Shown one piece after another: positions 14,565 to 29,691 of a stretch of DNA of 64,000 nucleotides (its first letter is position 1; every line of letters starts with the position of its first letter). The notes below the pieces were generated by a model. It was given only the letters and a program-made list of their open reading frames with translations. It was not told the origin of the DNA and ran no database searches. The translations under genes were made by a program, and so were the position numbers. Origin of the DNA: Dictyostelium discoideum (taxonomy: Eukaryota); NCBI GenBank assembly GCA_000004695.1, contig CM000151.3, forward strand, positions 2,912,001 through 2,976,000. The letters are read 5' to 3'.

Positions 14565-15414
14565 TTAAATACGAATTTTTTCATTATTTAATTCTTGTTG
14601 AGTAGCATCAATACTATTGCTATTATTATTATTAACAGGGTTACTTGAATTATTGTTATTATTATTATTATTTGTATTATTATTATTATTATTAATTGTA
14701 TTTTTATTTTCATTTATTGTAGATGATGAACGATTTTCTTCAATATATTTACAGATTTGAGTATTTATTACTTCATATAATAACTTTGGGTTAATTGGTT
14801 TTGTTACATAATCATCAACACCAGATTCTAAAAACTTTTCTTTATCACCTTTCATTGCATGAGCAGTTACAGCAATGATTGGAATATGACCACCTTCATT
14901 TGCTTCGATTTCACGAATTGCACAAGTTGCTTCTAAACCTGATAAAATTGGCATTTGAATATCCATTAATATACAATCATAAAGTATTGATTTATTTTTA
15001 CTTTCATGATAGAAATCTAAGGCTTGTTTACCATCTTTTGCAATGGTAATATCAAAACCTCTTTTAGTTAATAATGTCTTTATTAATTTTTGATTCATTG
15101 TATTATCTTCTGCTACCAATACTTTTTGTGGAATCATTTGACTACCACTAATTTCAATTCCACCGCTGCTTGTACCATTACTACTTAATAAATTAATATT
15201 ACCACTATTTCCTGATAAAATTGGTGGTGATTGGAATTGTGGTGTAGTAATTGTTGATGATGGTTGTGGTGGTGTTGTTACTCCTACTATTGTAGTTAAA
15301 CTACAATTATTATTATTATTGCTTCTTGGTGAACTAATTGGTGGTGATGTTTCAGGTGTTGAATTTGATGATTTTGATGGATCAGATGTATGATTATTAC
15401 TTGTATTTGTAGTG

Positions 15415-15503
<89 letters not shown>

Positions 15504-18455
15504 TAAAATTAAATTATTTGAATGAACAGTAGTATTATTATGTTGTTGAGATTGTTGTTGATGAATATGATGATGATGAATATGATGAAGATTTGTACTA
15601 CTTAAATTGGATTTATGTGGTGACATTCTTCCACTCAATTGTTCTAATTGTTGTTGTTGTTGTTGCTGTTGTTGTTGCTGTTTTGGTGAATATTGTTTTG
15701 GTGAATATTGTTGTTTTGGTGAATATTGTTTTGGAGAGTATTGCTGTTTTGGTGAATAACCACGTTGTGATTGTTTTGGTGATGAAGCAGATTGTAAACT
15801 TAATAATGGAACTATAACTATTTTTTTACCATTTGGAGTAACTGGATTATTATTTATAATTGTTATACTATTACCATTATTAATAATATTTGAACTGCTT
15901 TGAGTTACATTTGTTGAGGTTGAATTTGAAGAATTTGGTGTTAAACTATTAATATTATTTAAATCAGAGATATCAATTGAGTTATCTTTTAATGGTAAAA
16001 TTGGTGATAAAATTGGTTGTGTTTGTTGTTGTTGATTATTATTATTAACATTATTTGATGATATTGAAACTGGTGATGGTGTATTTGAAGATGTTAATGG
16101 AGTTGAGGATAATGAAGATGATGAAGGAGTTGAATTATTTGCACTACTATTACCACTATTGCTACCATTTGTACTGCTACCACCCCCACTACTACTACTA
16201 CTGTTGATAGGTGGTGAACTATAACCAACACCACCTCTAGGGGTACTAATTAAATTTGAATAATTTTTACCACCGTGACTTAAACTACGACCAGGTGATT
16301 TTGGTGGTGAATAAGCTGGTAAATTATTTAAACCACATTCTTTGGAAATTGGACCACGTGGTGTACAAATTGAATGAATTCTTTGAATTAAATCCATTGG
16401 ACAACTATGTTGTTTTTTAACATTTTTAGTTGAAGGTGTTGAAATTAAACTTGAACCACGACTATTATTTAAACCATTTGGAGTTTGAATATTATTATTA
16501 CTATTATTTAAACTTATACCACTATTATTATTTCCATTGGTATTATTATTTCCATTAGTATTACCAATTATATTATTAAGATTATTTGGATTATTTGATA
16601 AATTACTAAGATTATTTAAACCACTAATATTTAAATTTGAAATACCATTAAAACCAGTTGGACTTGAACTAAGAGTATTATGACTTGAAGATTTTAATGA
16701 TGTATTATTTAAAGAGGCAATGAAATTATAATAACTATTTGATGGTGTACGACTTGTTAATGGACCATTATCATTTGAATTATTATTATTATTAATACTA
16801 TTATTATTATTTAATGTACTACCATTGATATTTATATTATTCATACTATTACTTAAAGAAATACCATAATTTGTTGAATCGTTATTACCATTATCATTTG
16901 AATCTTTTTTCACTTTTTTAGTTTGAACATTTGGAAGTGATGGAATATAAATTTCATTTTTTAATCTACTAGATTCAAATAATTTAGTGGTTGAATTGAT
17001 TGAACCATTACTTGATTGTAATGAAGGTGATTTTGGTGATGGTGCTTCAACACTTTTAATTGAGAGAATGAAATGAAAAGTTGAACCTTGTGATGCTTCA
17101 CTTTCAAACCAAATTGCACCACCAAAGAATTCAATTAACTTTTTGCAAATACTTAAACCTAAACCAACACCACCTTGAACACGACTATATGAACCATCAA
17201 CTTGAAAGAATCTATCGAAAATGAAATCATGTTTATCCTCTGGTACACCAATACCACGATCTTTAATTGAAAATTTTAGATTAACAAACCCTTCACGATC
17301 TTTTTTTTTAAATTTTTCACGTTTATTAATACCACCTCCACCACCACCACTGGTATTATTATGAAATAATAAATTATTACTTATATTATTTCTTGAAGTG
17401 TTTGATGATGTATCGTCGTCGGTATCATCATCATTTTCATCAGTTTCATCATTTTCATCATCATTTTCATCATCATCATCACTATTATCTTTTTCATCTA
17501 ATTCACTAAAACCACCAACAGCTGATTCATTATCTGAAACATTAATATCTCTACCAAAATAAGAATCATTATTATCTTGATCATCATAATCACCATCGAT
17601 ACTATAATCATCATGTGAATTTAATCTACTATGAGTCTTTGAATTTGATCTAAAAGAGTCTTTATATTTTTTAAATTGATTATGAGTTAATTGTTCAACA
17701 ATGATTGAAATTGAATTATTTATATTTGAAGAATTTGAAAATTTTATTGCATTATCAATTAGATTTGAAAGGATTTGTTTTAAACGATTTTGATCACCAT
17801 AGAAATCATCGGCAATATTTGGATCGATTGAAAAGGTTAAACTAATCTTCTTTTCAATGATACGTGTATAGAAAACTTTAAATAATTGATTGAATGTATC
17901 ACGTAACTTGAATGGGAAAGGTCTAACTGCCAATGAATTTGATTCCAATGTTGTGAAATCTAAAATTTGGTGAAGTAAATCCAATAGAATCTTTGACGAC
18001 TCCACAACATCATTTAACATTTCCTTTAGATTCCTTGGTGCAACATCTAAACATAAACCAACCATACCAATGATTGAATTCATTGGACTCAATAATTCAT
18101 GACTAATATTTGCCAAAAATTCACCTTTTAATTGATTAGCCCTTTGTGCCTCCTCTGTTGCATTCTTTAGTATAACTTCATTACGTTTTCTTTCAGTAAT
18201 ATCATGTAAGGCTACAAATGCACCAATGGTTTTACCATCTTTTGAAACAATCTCTTGACCACTTGCCAAAACTAAAAATTCATTATCATTTATCTTTGTT
18301 GGAATTTTAGTTGCAATTGGTATTTGTTGTGGTGATGTTATTGTTGCTGCTGCTGCTGTTGTTGATGTTGTTGCACCACCTATTCCATTTGTTGTATTTT
18401 GTTGTTGTTGTGTTTGTTGTGTTGATACTTGTGTTTGTTGTTGTTGTGAAATTGA

Positions 18456-18519
<64 letters not shown>

Positions 18520-19880
18520 GTTGTTGTTGTTGTTGTACTATAATTTTTTGATAATCTATTTTGTGATTTATTACCATTTGAACAATTTGATTGTGATCTT
18601 GGTCTATTTGATTTTGATAATGATGATTGTTGTTGATTTGAAGTTGGAGTAATTATAATTTCTTGATCATTTATAAATTCACCACTTAATGCTCTAATAA
18701 TTGGTGTACCTGATTTTTCTAAATTTATTTGTTCATATGGTGATCTATAACATTTTAAAATTTGATCTAATAATTGTTTTCTATCGGTTTTATCGTTCAA
18801 TTCTAATCCATGTAAATCTTGTGCACTCTTATTGAAATGTGTTAAATCACCATTTGAATTACATGCAACAATGCCTGCTTTTAAACAACCAATTAATGCT
18901 TCAACAAATTTACTCTCTTCTTCTAATTTATCTTTTGCTTCTTGAATTTCACTAAAATCATGACAAACTCCTAAAACTTTAAAAACTTTATCATCTTTTT
19001 TAATAATTTCACCTCTTTTTTTTTTCATTGAAAAAAAAAAAAAAAAATAAAAAAAAAAGTTTGGAAATTAATAAATAATTAATAAAAATGATAATTATAA
19101 TAATAATAATAATACAAACTTTAATTGAATATATCTAACTAAATTATCATTTTTTCTATTAATTCTTAATGGATATTCAAATGAAGAACTATTTGATTCT
19201 ATACAATTATTAATTATTGGTTGAATTTCTTGAATACCAAGTTTATTAATAAAATCATTAAAATTCAATTTTTTATTAAAATCATTTTCAATACCAATTA
19301 TTTTATAAAATTGATTAGATGCTTTAGTTGTATCATTTTGAACATTCCATTCCCAAGATCCCATGTTTGATGGTTCTGGTCTATTATATTGTCCTTTATT
19401 ACTACTATTAATATTTACAGAATTTTGATTATTTTGATTATTATTTATATTATGATTTTCAATTGATGATGATAATGGTGATTGAATAAATTTAATTTCT
19501 TCAATTGCTTCTACTAATATAAAAATTCGTTTACCTTCGTAATCTAAATAATGACTATCTTGATTTACTAATAAATTAATACTAGTATCCAAATATAATT
19601 GTCTTGCATCCATATCACTAATATGTATTGATGAATATTTAAATATCATTTGTTTTAAAATCTCTCCATTTTCGTTGGATTCTATTATATCGATGTGTTC
19701 ATGTTTTGATTTACCATTTCTAATATCATTTATTAAATTTGAATTATTAAATAATGATGTTATTGATTCAATATTTTTATATTTTTTACATGATTGATTA
19801 CCCCAAATCAATACTCTTTTATTTATATCGAATAACCAAATTGCTTGATTTAATTTTTCTAATATTTTTAAATAAATCAT
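14565..19880 (-). CDS. Hybrid sensor histidine kinase (dhk family): PAS/PAC regions, HisKA, HATPase_c and a C-terminal receiver domain. Two exons: 19120-19880 and 14565-19014; about 1736 aa.
   Basis: H-box FLANISHELLSPMNSIIGMVGL. ATPase N/G boxes LSNLIDNAIKFS...DRGIGVPEDKHDFIFDRFFQVDGSYSRVQGGVGLGLSICKKL. Receiver KVLVAEDNTMNQKLIKTLL...ILMDIQMPILSGLEATCAIRE...PIIAVTAHAMKGDKEKFLESGVDDYVTKPI. The intron is TTA AA|GTTTGT...AG|A GGT in phase 2. The ATG at 19878-19880 opens a PAS-like exon (MIYLKILEKLNQAIWLFDINKRVLIWGN...). Long poly-Asn/Gln/Ser linkers are present. Confidence 0.85.
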
Positions 19881-21935: not shown

Positions 21936-22422
21936 GCACAGTGTGGGTGATTAATCACATTGATTTGAGATTATCTTTAAATTAGATTTTTCGACTTACC
22001 ATAAACCTCCACTTGTAGTTCTTAAAGCATATAAAATATTATTTATTGATTTTTCAAACTTTTCATTTAAATCATTACTACTATTGTGATTGCTACTATT
22101 ACTATTAATATTATTATTATTAATTTTATTTGCAGGTGATTCAGTTGTATTTACAATTTGATTTAAAAATACAATTGACATTGATAAAAGATATAGTGCA
22201 TAAATTAAAGTTGTTGTTATAAAATAAAAAAATTCTCTATAATTTCTACGACCAATACAATTTCCAATCCAAACACAATGATGATCAAAATTCTCTACAC
22301 AATTATTACAAGTTGAGCAATGAAAAGATCTTGGTTCTCTATATAATCCACATGTAATACAAAATTTACATTTATATTTAAAATCACTATCACCAATTTG
22401 AATTTCTTTATATTTTGATTGA

Positions 22423-22454
<32 letters not shown>

Positions 22455-23380
22455 GTTATTATTTCTATTTCTATTTTTATTATTATTATTATTATTATTA
22501 CTGTTGTTGTTGTTACTATTTGTGGGTTGTTCCATTTCTACGATGAAATCACCACTATTTTCAAAACTATTTCGAGCACTACTACTACCACCTTGTTCAT
22601 CTTGATCATCATCATCGCTATCACTAAAATCAGATGATGATGAAATTGGATCATCATTTGCAATTTCATCCATACCTGATGTTATAAATTTCTTTAAAGC
22701 TTTTTTAGTTGCTTGTAATTTTGTTAATTTTATTTTATCTTTTTTACTTTCTTCAATATTATTTCTTGTAATTATACCTGGATTTGTAAATGCGCATTTA
22801 TATAAATTATAAAATATAAAAACCAATAATGTTAAAGTAATGATATAATTTGAAATTTCTAATTTTTTTGAAATTTCTAAACTTATTGGTACCCTTTTTT
22901 TTTTATTTAATTTAATTTTATTTAATTTAATAAAATTAATAAAGAAAATAAATAAATTGTTAATATATGTTATAATTAAAATAATTTAAAAAAAAAAAAA
23001 AATTAAACATACAATTTGATTTCAAAAAATAATGATGGAACTAATATAAAAATTTGAGTAACTATAAAAAATAATTTATCGGGCCCTGTAACACATTTAT
23101 AAAAATAAAGACTTTTGGTTTTTTTTATTTTTCTTTTTTTTAATTTTTTATTATTTTCATTTGTAGATTCTTCTTGTATTTCAGAAATATCACCCTCTTG
23201 TGTATCATTACTATCTCCGCTTGTATAAATAAAATTTTCATTTTGGTAATTATTATTTTCATTATTATTTTCATTAATTCCTATTTTATTTTCATATATT
23301 TTATCCTTTTTTTTATTTTTTTCATTTTCTTCATTTTCTCTGTCATTAATTTTATTATTTTTATTATTATTATTTACCAT
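21551..23380 (-). CDS. DHHC-type protein S-acyltransferase (zf-DHHC) with four predicted TM helices. Exons are roughly 23010-23380, 21999-22826 and 21551-21797; the exon1-exon2 junction is not resolved.
   Basis: Catalytic core CKFCITCGLYREPRSFHCSTCNNCVENFDHHCVWIGNCIGRRNYREFFYF. TM helices before it (LFFIVTQIFILVPSLFF, ISNYIITLTLLVFIFYNLY) and after it (TTTLIYALYLLSMSIVFL, IFIIIFGFIMSLLLGFLVSY). The post-TM4 NKSTIEDF (TTxE-like) motif is present. Exon 2/3 splice is TTA TG|GTAAGT...TTTTAG|T in phase. Confidence 0.75.
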
Positions 23381-23948
23381 TTATATACAAATAATATCCA
23401 TATATAAAAAAAAAAAAAAAAAAAAAAAGGTAAAAAAATAAAATTAAAAAAAAATAAAATTAAAAAAAAAAAAAAAAAAAATAAAACTAAAAATTGGTGG
23501 AAAGATATTTTTGATTTCACATTTTTTTTTTTTTTTAATATTCAAATTTAGATTTATTTTCTCGTAGCCCTTTGAGAAAAAAAAAAAAAAACGGTAGATA
23601 TTTTTTATTAACCTTTTTCAATAAAGTTTTTAATCAATTAAAACTTAATTGGAAAAATTAATTTAATAAAGAAAAATAAAAAAGATAAAAAAAAATAAAA
23701 AAATAAAAAAAATAAAAAAAACAATTTGCTTAATCAAGAGAAAATGAAAGTGCTAAATAATATTTGGATTTTTTTTTTTTTTTTTTAATATAAACCCAAA
23801 TAAAAAAATAATTAAAAATAATAAAAAATAAAAAAAAAAATAAAAAAAAAAAAAAATCCAAATTGCTTGGAAAAAAAAAAAAAAAAAAAAATTTCAACAT
23901 TTATTGTTTTTTATTTTTTAAAATAATTTATAGTAACAACTGAAAAAA

Positions 23949-24409
23949 ATGAATAAATTTTTAAAAGCATCAACAAGTATTACACGTTTAATAAATAGAC
24001 AACAATCAACTATTGAAACATGCCAATATGCAAAAAGATTTCAAGAGATTGAAGCAAGTGAATTAAAGAAAGGTATGTGGATTGAACATAAGTCCAAATT
24101 ATTCCAAATTGAGAAAGTTGTACATCAAAAGGTTGCAATGAGAGGTGGTTTCATCATTACCGATATGAAGAATGTTATTGATGGTTCAAAAAGTAATATT
24201 AAATTTAGAAGTGCAGAGAATATAGAATTAGTTGATCTCTCAAGAAGTACTTATAATTTCGTTGAAACTATCAAAGATGGTAAAGCTTTTGTTTTTAGAA
24301 GAATTGATAGTGAAGGTGATGAAGAAGATGATGAAGATTTTGTTTGTACAAATATTTCACAATTAGATGGTTATTCACCATATTTATCTTTATTCGGTGA
24401 AGGTATTGT

Positions 24410-24501
<92 letters not shown>

Positions 24502-24770
24502 TTAAATAAAAAAATAAAAACTAATTATATTCATTTGTTTTTTCCAATTAAATAGATACTGAATTCCATTTTAGAACATATAATGGTAATGTAATTGATT
24601 TTAAAGGACCAACACAAATTGATCTTACTATTAGATCTGTATCAGATCTCCAAAACAATAATGTTCTTCATTTTGAAAATGGTCGTTCTTGTAAAGGTCC
24701 AATTTATTTAAAACCTGGTGATAAAGTTCAAATTCGTTTACCAGAGGAAGTTTTCATAACAAAAGTTTAA
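23949..24770 (+). CDS. Bacterial-type elongation factor P (EF-P)-like protein with an N-terminal presequence, probably mitochondrial. Two exons: 23949-24402 and 24556-24770.
   Basis: KOW-like domain I reads KVAMRGGFIITDMKNVIDGSKSNIKFRSAENIELVDLSRSTYNFVE..DGKAFVFRRIDS, to be compared with E. coli [52 protein letters not shown]. The C-terminal OB domain reads GPIYLKPGDKVQIRLPEEVFITKV, to be compared with [24 protein letters not shown]. The intron (GAA G|GTATTG...(ATT)n...AATAG|AT) is in phase 1. Confidence 0.65.
24414..24503. repeat. (ATT)~28 microsatellite inside the EF-P-like gene intron.
   Basis: Perfect ATT array between the GTATTG donor and the AATAG acceptor. Confidence 0.9.
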
Positions 24771-24961: not shown

Positions 24962-26513
24962 TTAGCCAACCATTGTAAAATCATCGATTTCACCATCACT
25001 AGAAAAATCAGGTTGATAAGTATTTAATTTTGGTGGATAGTTTGGAGTTTGTTGTTGGTTAGTGTTGTTGTTGTTGTTTTTGTTGTTGTTATTATTATTA
25101 TTTTGATTATTATTTTGATTATTATTTGGATTATAGGGAATATGATGATGAACTATAAATTCTTCATCATCAACAACAATATTTTCAGGAATACAAGAAT
25201 GATTATTTCCACCATTTGCAATAGTGATTGCAAGCATTTCAGTTGTTTCACTCTCTGCATAATCATCAACCAATTCACATTCGATTTGATAATCTGGTAA
25301 CTTTTGACAAACTGAAATGATTGGAAATTCACAATTATTAATTACAGATAATCTATCACAAAGATCTTCAAAACTTGCTTGATCTCTACAATAAAATCCA
25401 ATTGATAAAGATGGATCTAATTGTGTAAATGGCATTTTTTGCGGTATACATCCACTATATGTCTATTTAATTATTATTTATAATATATATATAAATATAT
25501 ATTAATAAAACTTAGATTTGAATAATCGAATGAATTATTATTATTATTATTTATAAAACTTACATTTGAATAATCGAATGAATTTGGATTAACACTTTCT
25601 TGGACAAAATGAGGATCTAAATAAATGACTTGATCATCTTGAAAACCAATAAAATAAAATGATTGTTTTGGTTTACCACCAATAAAACCTAAACTTTGTG
25701 GTAATTTTAATAATAATTTTAATTTTTCAATATAGGTTGAGTTTAATTTATCTGCACCCAATTTCAAAGGTATCATAATAATCAATGATTTCCACTTTGG
25801 TGGTATTGAACTAATAGCTGTGTTATAGTCAAATAATGATTCATCATCAAATACTTGATTATTATATCCATTTGGTACTCTAGATGGTGGTGATTGATTA
25901 TTGTTATTATTACTACTTGTTGCTGTGGTTGTTGTAGTTGTTGTGGTTGTTGGGTTGTTGTTATTATTATTTTTATTATTATTTTGTTGAATATTTTGTT
26001 GTTCTCTTAAATGTTGTAATTGTTGTTGAATAATTTGATAATGATTATGTGTATTACTATTATTACATAAATTATTTATATAATCTTTATATATGACACC
26101 ATCAGTTGGAACGTACATTTCTAAATCTTCCAAATGTTGAAATTTAATTAATTGTCTTAAAATATTTGAAATTCTAGTTGGAGCTAACCATTCCTCTACA
26201 TTATCATTTATCTCTTCTTCTTTTTCTTTTTTCTTTTTTCCTTTAGAACTTCCTCCTCCTCCTCGATTTAATGAAATCACTTGTTCTCTTAAAATTTGTT
26301 GTTTTCTATTATTCTTTTCCATTGCTTGTTTTTTATTTACAATTTGATGTATACCATATACATGCTCCTTTGAAGGATAATCACTAAACCATGCCAACAC
26401 TTGGCTATAATTTGAATGTGGTTTCTTTCTTTCTATTTCTGGTACCATATCTTTTTTTTTTTTTAAAAAAAAAAAAAATAAATAAAAATAATTAATTGGT
26501 TAATAAAGTTTAA

Positions 26514-26571
<58 letters not shown>

Positions 26572-27556
26572 ATTATAAAATAAAACAACAAATAATCATA
26601 CCATTTTCTTTATAAAGATGTTTAATTAATGCTCTAGCTAATATCATTTGACCAGTTCTTAACATACAACCCCAACCAATATCTGTAGTAATATTTGTAT
26701 TTTCTATTGGTGGGAAATCTTTCCTATAACTAAACCATATCATTGAAGCTACATCTGATAAAAATCCTGATTCTATAGCTGGTCTATATATAAGATCTGT
26801 AGTTAAATTGTTGTTGTTATTATTATGATTATTATTATGATTATTATTATTATTACTATTACTATTGTTATTTTGAAAAATACCTATAGATTGTTGAAGT
26901 TGTGTTGGTTGGGTCTGTGGTACTTGATTATTATTACTATTATTATTACTATTATTATCTTTTGAGGTATAACACCTTCCCATTAACCAAATTGGTGAGG
27001 GTGAAAAATGTGGAGGCTCCGTTGGATCTTTAAATAAAATGTTAATATATATAAACGATGAAATAATAATAGAAAATAAATAATAATTCCTAAAAACATA
27101 CAATTTCTATAAAGATTATAAAAAGACATCATAATTTTTTGTTTTCCCTCTTTATATATATTTAAAATATTTGTTTTTTGTTTTTGTTCTTTTTGTCGTT
27201 GTTGTTCTTTAATTTGTGATTGTTGTTGTAATAATTGTTGTTGATAAAAAACTTGTTCTTGTAAAAATTGTTCTTGTTGTTGTTGTTGTTGTAAATTGAT
27301 TTGTCTTTGATTTTGGAATGAATTTCCCATTGCCGTTGATGATGATGGTGTTGATGATGATGATGTTGGTGAATTTGGTTGATTAAATCCATAAGAAATT
27401 TGTTGTGGTGCTTGTTGTTGTTGTCTCAAATATGATTGTTGATTATAAGTTTGTTGTTGATATTGAAAAGGTTGTAAATGACTTCCATCTAAACATATAT
27501 AAATATGATCAATCTATATTAATATAAATTTCATTATAAAAAATTTTTTTTTCTTT

Positions 27557-28320: not shown

Positions 28321-28384
28321 ATGATGATGGATTGCTTCTCAACACCAGTCCAAAGAAATAATAACATTAATAATAATAATAACA

Positions 28385-28419
<35 letters not shown>

Positions 28420-29173
28420 TGTACAATTAGTACTAGTGGTAGTAGTAGTAGTAGTAGTGGTGGTGGTGAAATTAATTGTAATAAAAATGAAAAAGAAGTT
28501 ATTGTTAAAGTATTAAAGAATGGATTAATAGAGAGTAATTCATTATTTAAAGTATATAGATTTGAAAAGAATATGTGTGACGGTGGAGGATTTGTATTGA
28601 ATAGATTAATAGGTGGTGATAAAGAGTTACAACATATTGATCCATTTGTATTGTTGGATGAAATTAATACCAATTCACCTCAAGAATATGAAAAAGGATT
28701 CCCAGATCATCCACATCGTGGTATTCAATTGGTGACATATATGTTGGAAGGTTTGATGGTACATAATGATTCGTTAGGTAATAAAGTTGTATTAAAGACA
28801 GGTGATCTTCAATGGATACTATCGGGTAAAGGTATAGTACATAGTGAGATGCCATCCTCGACAACCTCTAAACTTTGGGTCATTCATTATTGGTTAAATT
28901 TACCAAAACAATTGAAAATGGTTGAACCAGATTACCAATATGTATCGAATGAATCAATTCCATTAATTCAACGTACAAATGGTAATACTGATTTCATGAT
29001 TAAAGTTATCTCTGGTCAATATTTAGATAATGAAACAAAGATATTACATAAAAGTCCTTTAAAAAGTTTAGGTTTAAATCCTCAAGTTTTAGATATTGAT
29101 ATAAAATTAAATACTGATAATAATAATAATAACAATCAACTTATAAGTGCAGATAATGGTGATAATGGTGGTG

Positions 29174-29240
<67 letters not shown>

Positions 29241-29424
29241 TACTAATGATAATAATGGTGAAAATAATGAAGAATATACTTGTAAAAAAGAATCTACTAC
29301 TCCATTTGAAATTGATATAAATGAAACATTTGGTTCATTTTTATTGGTTTTAGATGGTCCAGTTTCAATAAATAATTCAAAACCTATTGGTCCTGGAAAA
29401 CTTATTGTATTTAATAGAAAATCA

Positions 29425-29457
<33 letters not shown>

Positions 29458-29691
29458 TGTACAAATAATAATAGTAATATAAATAATAATAGTGGTGGTA
29501 GTGATAATATAGATATAGATAATGAAAATTGTACCTTTAATAGAGTTTCAATAACATCTAAATCAAATTCAAGACTTTTATTCTTTTCATCAAAACAAAT
29601 TCAAGAACCAATATTTAAATATGGACCATTTGTAATGAGTGATATGAATGATATTCATCAATGTTTCATTGATTTTGAATATGGTCTTTAA
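28321..29691 (+). CDS. Pirin-family bicupin protein. Single exon with Asn-rich insertions.
   Basis: Pirin N-terminal cupin signature GFPDHPHRGIQLVTYMLEGLMVHNDSLGNKVVLKTGDLQWILSGKGIVHSE; a second cupin half is in the C-terminus (GPFVMSDMNDIHQCFIDFEYG). Confidence 0.8.

Follow-up and report, generated by a model that had tools for sequence, protein, structure and literature searches.

A gene on the forward strand of Dictyostelium discoideum contig CM000151.3 (assembly GCA_000004695.1), at positions 23949–24770 of the 64,000-nucleotide stretch analysed here (contig positions 2,912,001–2,976,000; hereafter 'the window', the numbering of which is used throughout), encodes a genuine, highly divergent, bacterial-type three-domain homologue of elongation factor P (EF-P) rather than an eIF5A. 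We consider it probable that the gene, which is nuclear, encodes an EF-P targeted to mitochondria, that it has been passed down vertically within Amoebozoa, and that its ultimate source was bacterial (probably alphaproteobacterial); the protein is probably either unmodified or modified in an unknown way. The reading frame runs from an ATG at 23949 to a TAA at 24768–24770 and, once spliced, comprises 222 uninterrupted codons. The ATG begins a 154-codon open reading frame that reads into the splice donor (GAAG/GTATTG) at the end of exon 1 (23949–24402; codons 1–151 and the first base of codon 152). There follow a 153-nucleotide, phase 1 GT..AG intron with 5% G+C (24403–24555) and, from the acceptor AAATAG/AT, exon 2 (24556–24770; the remainder of codon 152 to codon 222, and the stop codon). 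A perfect (TAT)28 microsatellite (24417–24501) accounts for the greater part of the intron. The spliced 222-residue product matches annotated D. discoideum AX4 DDB_G0273555 with 100% identity over 100% of its length, in agreement with the coordinates and gene model proposed in an initial annotation made from the sequence alone. DDB_G0273555 is a 'hypothetical protein' at NCBI and carries a UniRef name starting 'Translation elongation'; a literature search found no publication naming it.

Membership of the EF-P family is clearest in domain I and in the overall fold. The EF-P profile match expected from the initial annotation is present: Pfam EFP_N (PF08207) matches residues 35–91 at 57.8 bits (cutoff 23). 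Almost the whole of the NCBIfam efp model (TIGR00038; positions 1–183 of 184) aligns with residues 34–221, at a sub-threshold 62.5 bits (cutoff 185.8), which is still more than the NCBIfam EfpL/YeiP models reach (46.2 bits, cutoff 216, and 41.2 bits, cutoff 264). AlphaFold2 (AF2) models were obtained from alignments of 10 sequences (predicted local distance difference test score, pLDDT, 78.8) and 35 sequences (pLDDT 87.7, predicted template-modelling score 0.74), and both consist of a disordered N-terminus followed by one KOW and two OB domains. Solved bacterial EF-Ps (T. thermophilus, E. coli and A. baumannii) were the top Foldseek matches, with target-normalised template-modelling scores of 0.76–0.79 over approximately 190 columns; two-domain eIF5A/aIF5A structures came next, with only approximately 140 columns covered. 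In domain I, 64 of 66 residues of canonical EF-P superpose on the Dictyostelium model at 1.1 Å. Sequence identity to bacterial EF-Ps is about 14–22%. The relatives from Ceratiomyxa, Vermistella, Balamuthia and Soliformovum pass the Pfam Elong-fact-P_C (PF09285) cutoff, and hence link domain III, divergent as it is in Dictyostelium, with the family, lending it transitive support. The identification as a bacterial EF-P homologue made in the initial annotation thus stands for domain I, which exceeds its Pfam cutoff, and for the three-domain fold, while Pfam recognises neither domain II nor domain III. The further statement that the C-terminal OB domain follows bacterial EF-P motif for motif was too strong, given the lack of Pfam detection and a deletion described below.

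The protein divides into a KOW-like domain I (residues 36–96; 24054–24236), an OB-type domain II (residues 97–168; 24237–24605, the intron lying inside it) and a C-terminal OB domain III (residues 169–222; 24606–24767; delimited by HMMER, MAFFT and AF2), and conservation is unevenly distributed among them. Among dictyostelids, 49% of columns are invariant in domain I, 7% in domain II and 22% in domain III. The most conserved part of the protein is the domain I hairpin (columns 56–70, 80% invariant); domain II contains a variable acidic insert (residues 117–130; 24297–24338). In domain III, both HMMER and MAFFT alignments place a deletion of seven residues at d3 loop I, the PG(L/V)(K/R)GDT region, which in bacterial EF-P touches the E-site codon (PMC11611912). 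Other amoebozoans retain this loop, some of them in the alphaproteobacterial form KGQ...SYKPA. The remainder of domain III keeps the pattern ...ENGR..K.P...G...(I/V)R.P(D/E)E.(F/Y)..(K/R), and the C-terminal aromatic/basic motif is conservatively maintained (EVFITK, compared with GEYVSR).

The β3–β4 loop at the end of the hairpin departs from what had been expected. In canonical EF-P this loop has seven residues, as in E. coli KPGKGQA, with the modified residue in fourth place. Ungapped alignments and AF2 secondary structure delimit the Dictyostelium loop as K61-V62-A63-M64-R65-G66-G67 (24129–24149), at the apex of which is Met64 (codon 24138–24140), followed by Arg65 (codon 24141–24143). A HMMER profile of ten dictyostelid orthologues aligned the hairpin without gaps to the EF-Ps of C. 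thermocellum, S. aureus and T. thermophilus, pairing HQKVAMRGGF with HVKPGKGAAF and HQKLGRGGAK. A 92-sequence MAFFT alignment, which included E. coli and P. aeruginosa EF-P (both sequences verified against PDB), gave the identical register and no gap in the hairpin. Throughout the ungapped canonical alignments, Met64 shares a column with Lys34/Arg32, and Arg65 shares the next with Gly35/Asn33. Residue 64 is likewise the centre of the hairpin in both AF2 models (strands 50–62/66–75 and 50–61/67–75). The initial annotation had put an Arg at the position of E. coli Lys34; by HMMER, MAFFT and both AF2 models, that position is occupied by Met64, and the Arg comes one residue later. Only in alignment with EfpL does Arg65 meet a tip Arg (Arg33), at the cost of a two-residue gap after β4. 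Realignment of the loop so as to place Arg65 on the tip (VAM-RGG against -LGRGGA) was also considered and rejected: it requires two compensating indels within seven residues, and is contradicted both by the ungapped register of β4 (FIITDMKNV against KVVAKFKNL) and by the centring of the two AF2 hairpins on residue 64.

The segment H59-Q-K-V-A-M-R-G-G-F-I69 is invariant among ten dictyostelids, and the same motif, HQKVAMRGGFI, recurs identically in three further relatives (P0011–P0013), Ceratiomyxa included. In a non-redundant set of 38 relatives that have N-terminal extensions, the residue at the tip is Arg in 20, Met in 6, Gln in 6, Lys in 5 and Asn in 1, and the next column contains Gly in 16 and Arg in 15, such that 31/38 have Arg at one or other of the two positions. 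From these counts, an Arg in the neighbourhood of the tip appears to be selected, its exact position being somewhat free. Non-basic tips are also found among bacterial EF-Ps (Met 0.77%, Gln 0.6%, Asn 2.2%, Ala 0.5%), the Met-tipped proteins forming a rare known class that never has Pro at −2 (PMC6544042), and Met64 therefore does not exclude membership of the family. One metagenomic EF-P of 176 residues that has no N-terminal extension (P0133) has the loop HVKIAMRGAMF, with the A-M-R core of dictyostelids; it may come from a bacterium, as an EF-P with a Met tip, or from a eukaryote, as a truncated sequence.

Domain I is preceded by a putative mitochondrial presequence of 31 residues (23949–24041). 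Residues 1–22 contain four Lys/Arg and no Asp/Glu, residues 1–34 have a pI of 10.0, residues 1–28 are disordered in AF2, and just 4% of the presequence stretch is invariant. The presequence proposed in the initial annotation is supported to the extent that the extension looks like one: basic, acid-poor, disordered and poorly conserved. Moreover, all of the complete orthologues from Amoebozoa begin with a comparable extension that is basic, rich in Ser/Thr and acid-poor, whereas bacterial EF-Ps have none. Arg30 is nearly invariant (at least 90%) across 35 eukaryotic relatives, and we infer a putative cleavage after Arg30-Phe31, at a site of the R-2 type, which would leave an N-terminus as long as that of bacterial EF-P. 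A motif (Q)Y.KRF.E, immediately before domain I (residues 27–35; 24027–24053), is invariant in dictyostelids; it may represent the presequence cleavage site, or an extra β-strand packing on domain I (AF2 places a strand at 30/32–35).

A search with the single protein reached 10 dictyostelids only, but when 1.84 billion representatives were searched exhaustively with HMMER there were 1035 matches at E ≤ 0.001, the best of which were proteins of 200–290 residues bearing N-terminal extensions. Named extended matches came from Ceratiomyxa, Soliformovum, Dermamoeba, Vermistella, Stenamoeba, Balamuthia, Phalansterium and Vannella among Amoebozoa, and from Cyanophora. Orthologues were available from nine other dictyostelids and, beyond Dictyostelia, from eight amoebozoan genera. 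When the search was repeated with a profile of 35 sequences, the word filter dominated, and only a few plant and metagenomic EF-Ps were added. The locus itself is conserved: the D. purpureum gene order is the same (DHHC palmitoyltransferase on the reverse strand, EF-P on the forward strand, Atg4-like Peptidase_C54 on the reverse strand), the EF-P/C54 pair is kept in Heterostelium album, and all three species share, to within one codon, the position of the phase 1 intron. The top-scoring matches of bacterial length, one of them from Ca. Pelagibacter, have the pattern H(V/T)(K/Q)PGKGGA(F/Y)...RFRS(A/S)E.

In a neighbour-joining (NJ) phylogeny with 200 bootstraps, shallow nodes were supported (99% for dictyostelids with P0011, and 85% when Ceratiomyxa and P0013 are added), and the eukaryotic sequences adjoined the Ca. 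Pelagibacter-type PGKGGA bacterial group. Because deep nodes have approximately 0–2% support and distances are saturated, this tree suggests, rather than establishes, an alphaproteobacterial and hence mitochondrial origin. Four further N-terminally extended proteins (P0034, from Chromera velia, P0033, P0076 and P0153) grouped by NJ with non-alphaproteobacterial EF-Ps and not with the amoebozoan clade; these may be plastid-type EF-Ps, in which case eukaryotes would have two lineages of organellar EF-P. A different architecture was seen in P0046, a metagenomic protein of 479 residues, in which a GAF domain (100–233) is fused to EFP_N (293–346) and Elong-fact-P_C (419–470), with the loop QESSAGRRETF.

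Among the closest known systems is bacterial EF-P itself (PF08207/PF01132/PF09285; T. thermophilus 1ueb, E. coli 3a5z/6enj, C. glutamicum 6s8z), from which the Dictyostelium gene differs in being nuclear, with an intron and a presequence-like extension, and its product in having Met, not Lys or Arg, at the apex, Arg at +1, no Pro at −2, an acidic insert in domain II and none of the seven residues of d3 loop I (GDT/GQT). There are also precedents among other protists. In Andalucia godoyi, EF-P is among the translation factors predicted to be mitochondrial (PMC7050145), and a Plasmodium homologue, PF3D7_0913400, took rank 30 in a compendium of mitochondrial proteins, where it was singled out as the first mitochondrial member of its family (PMC8550323). 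Both are likewise nuclear-encoded, bacterial-type and predicted to be mitochondrial, and the protein is absent from animals and fungi. Compared by description only, the Plasmodium protein reportedly has no C-terminal OB domain and is basic at position 34, whereas the Dictyostelium protein has three domains and Met. A literature search on mitochondrial EF-P by name returned nothing relevant.

If DDB_G0273555 is a mitochondrial EF-P, its basic presequence of approximately 31 residues would direct import and then be removed, leaving a mature N-terminus matching the bacterial one. With its three domains in an L shape, the protein would occupy the same place on the mitoribosome as bacterial EF-P does on its own ribosome, between the P and E sites, with the β3–β4 hairpin of domain I inserted toward the peptidyl-transferase centre. 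The hairpin is of canonical seven-residue length. Contact with the tRNA would most likely be made by the unmodified guanidinium group of Arg65, possibly aided by Met64, and not through a β-lysyl-Lys or a rhamnosyl-Arg; EfpL provides an example of an unmodified loop Arg that can function (PMC11611912). In dictyostelids, where the GDT loop that would read the E-site codon is deleted, that contact has probably been lost or replaced. In this scheme, the location of the protein, the cleavage of its presequence, its binding to the ribosome, its polyproline function and its modification state are all predictions from sequence and modelled structure.

Several points weigh against such a protein, or against its acting as a conventional EF-P. 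The apex of the seven-residue loop is non-basic, unlike the Lys or Arg of the EF-P family, and together with the loss of d3 loop I this could mean that function is altered or reduced. Neither PF01132 nor PF09285, the Pfam families for domains II and III, gave a match in the Dictyostelium protein, and all of the NCBIfam scores are well under their cutoffs. As regards origin, the bacterial comparators were chosen by similarity to the query, and the relevant bipartitions of the NJ tree have about 1–2% bootstrap support. It is possible, and we suggest it tentatively, that Amoebozoa retain an ancestral mitochondrial EF-P that does without the known tip modifications, having a Met-Arg, Gln-Arg or Arg-Arg loop with the functional Arg at apex+1, and that dictyostelids have in addition dispensed with the loop that contacts the E-site codon.

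Other explanations account for parts of these data. The unlikely, but most serious, of them is that the protein is a degenerate or repurposed relic that no longer rescues polyproline stalling and has, for example, some other mitoribosome-associated or RNA-binding role, or acts outside the mitochondrion altogether. The Pfam-undetectable domains II and III, the deleted GDT loop, the non-basic apex and the variable acidic insert all speak for such a relic, and opisthokont mitochondria do manage without EF-P, using TACO1 (PMC11381339). It is harder to reconcile with a hairpin conserved more strongly than any other part of the protein, with the maintenance of both the three-domain geometry and the C-terminal aromatic/basic motif, with the existence of Met- and Gln-tipped EF-Ps in bacteria (0.77% and 0.6%; PMC6544042), or with retention of the gene across Dictyostelia and eight further amoebozoan genera. 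Bacterial contamination or recent horizontal transfer, to which the bacterial type of the protein would point, has negligible probability and is excluded by gene structure and synteny. The intron is spliceosomal, AT-rich and filled with (TAT)28, its position and phase and the neighbouring genes are conserved in other dictyostelids, identity to bacterial EF-Ps is only about 15–22%, and base composition across the whole window (about 14–28% G+C per 2-kb window) fits Dictyostelium. The argument from Dictyostelium-style introns against contamination, made in the initial annotation, is accordingly upheld by the 5% G+C of the intron, its conserved phase and position, and the conserved DHHC/EF-P/Atg4 order.

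The two remaining alternatives concern the loop Arg. It is improbable that the protein is an EfpL (YeiP)-like paralogue, with an unmodified tip Arg on an extended loop, even though the best single-sequence PDB match was E. coli EfpL (1.9e-6), in which Arg65 falls on Arg33 and QKVAMRGG on QSPTARGA, and even though some amoebozoan relatives do have loops one residue longer (Balamuthia, with QSRNTARGAAH, P0024 and Vannella). What the Dictyostelium protein has in common with EfpL (E. coli, PDB 8s8u; PMC11611912) is a presumably unmodified loop Arg followed by Gly (ARG and MRG, respectively). However, the loop of EfpL is nine residues long (SPTARGAAT) and combines an apical Arg33 with an invariant Pro three residues before it, whereas that of Dictyostelium has seven, with no insertion relative to canonical EF-Ps (as the close superposition of domain I also indicates), an off-apex Arg, and in place of the Pro Val62, invariant in dictyostelids. 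In addition, the efp model outscores both EfpL/YeiP models, EfpL loses its top rank when a family profile is used for the search, and the NJ tree places EfpL elsewhere. Less probable still, and indeed very doubtful, is an Arg-type EF-P whose loop Arg is rhamnosylated by an EarP-like enzyme, a resemblance drawn in the initial annotation. The loop does contain an invariant Arg, the extended relatives counted above mostly have Arg at tip or tip+1, and Pro is absent from −2 and −3, a trait common to EarP-type EF-Ps (PMC6544042). The Arg is nonetheless off the tip: Met64 aligns with Arg32 of P. aeruginosa EF-P (3oyy/6j7m) and Arg65, at apex+1, with Asn33. The loop context also differs, the apex being Met in KVAMRGG and Arg in KSGRNAA, which have in common only the leading Lys and the absent Pro. 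The residues flanking the loop Arg influence recognition by EarP (PMC6544042). Moreover, P. aeruginosa EF-P joins EfpL in the NJ tree, apart from the eukaryotic clade, although this placement is weak, the deep nodes being unsupported. No EarP (PF10093) gene was found among the neighbours of the EF-P gene in the window, which were all that was covered, and we know of no eukaryotic EarP. The enzyme has been defined in bacterial genomes (PMC11611912).

The surroundings of the EF-P gene are as follows. Divergent from it, on the reverse strand, is the DHHC palmitoyltransferase gene (21996–22826, possibly extending to 23380), the two being separated by an A/T-rich intergenic region of approximately 570 bp (23381–23948). 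Convergent with it, also on the reverse strand, is the Atg4-like cysteine protease gene (Pfam Peptidase_C54; 24962–27103), made up of at least three exons or open reading frames. Further away are a large hybrid histidine kinase with long poly-Asn/Gln tracts (HisKA, HATPase_c and Response_reg; 14565–19028, with a further open reading frame at 19095–19880; reverse strand) and a pirin-family gene broken up by long poly-Asn inserts (Pirin and Pirin_C; 28321–29691; forward strand). There are no tRNA genes in the window.

According to recent work on TACO1, mitochondria have no EF-P homologue (PMC11381339), which holds for humans and other animals and for yeast. TACO1/YebC of animals and fungi has the same presumed task, relief of mitoribosome stalling at proline-rich motifs, but has an unrelated fold and binds the A site, and it serves lineages without a mitochondrial EF-P. 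DDB_G0273555 and its amoebozoan orthologues join the predictions from Andalucia and Plasmodium that many protist mitochondria kept EF-P; the Dictyostelium gene is accordingly an uncharacterised member of a sparsely noted class, and not a new kind of system. Were it true that Amoebozoa have an ancestral, unmodified mitochondrial EF-P that was lost by animals and fungi, these proteins would constitute a distinct organellar class of EF-P, and the textbook-style view of mitochondria as lacking EF-P would be contradicted. As Dictyostelium is genetically tractable, DDB_G0273555 offers a practical entry to the questions of whether mitochondrial EF-P is functional, how it shares the work with TACO1, and in what way the mitoribosome is engaged by an EF-P whose apex is non-basic and flanked by Arg and whose GDT loop is gone.

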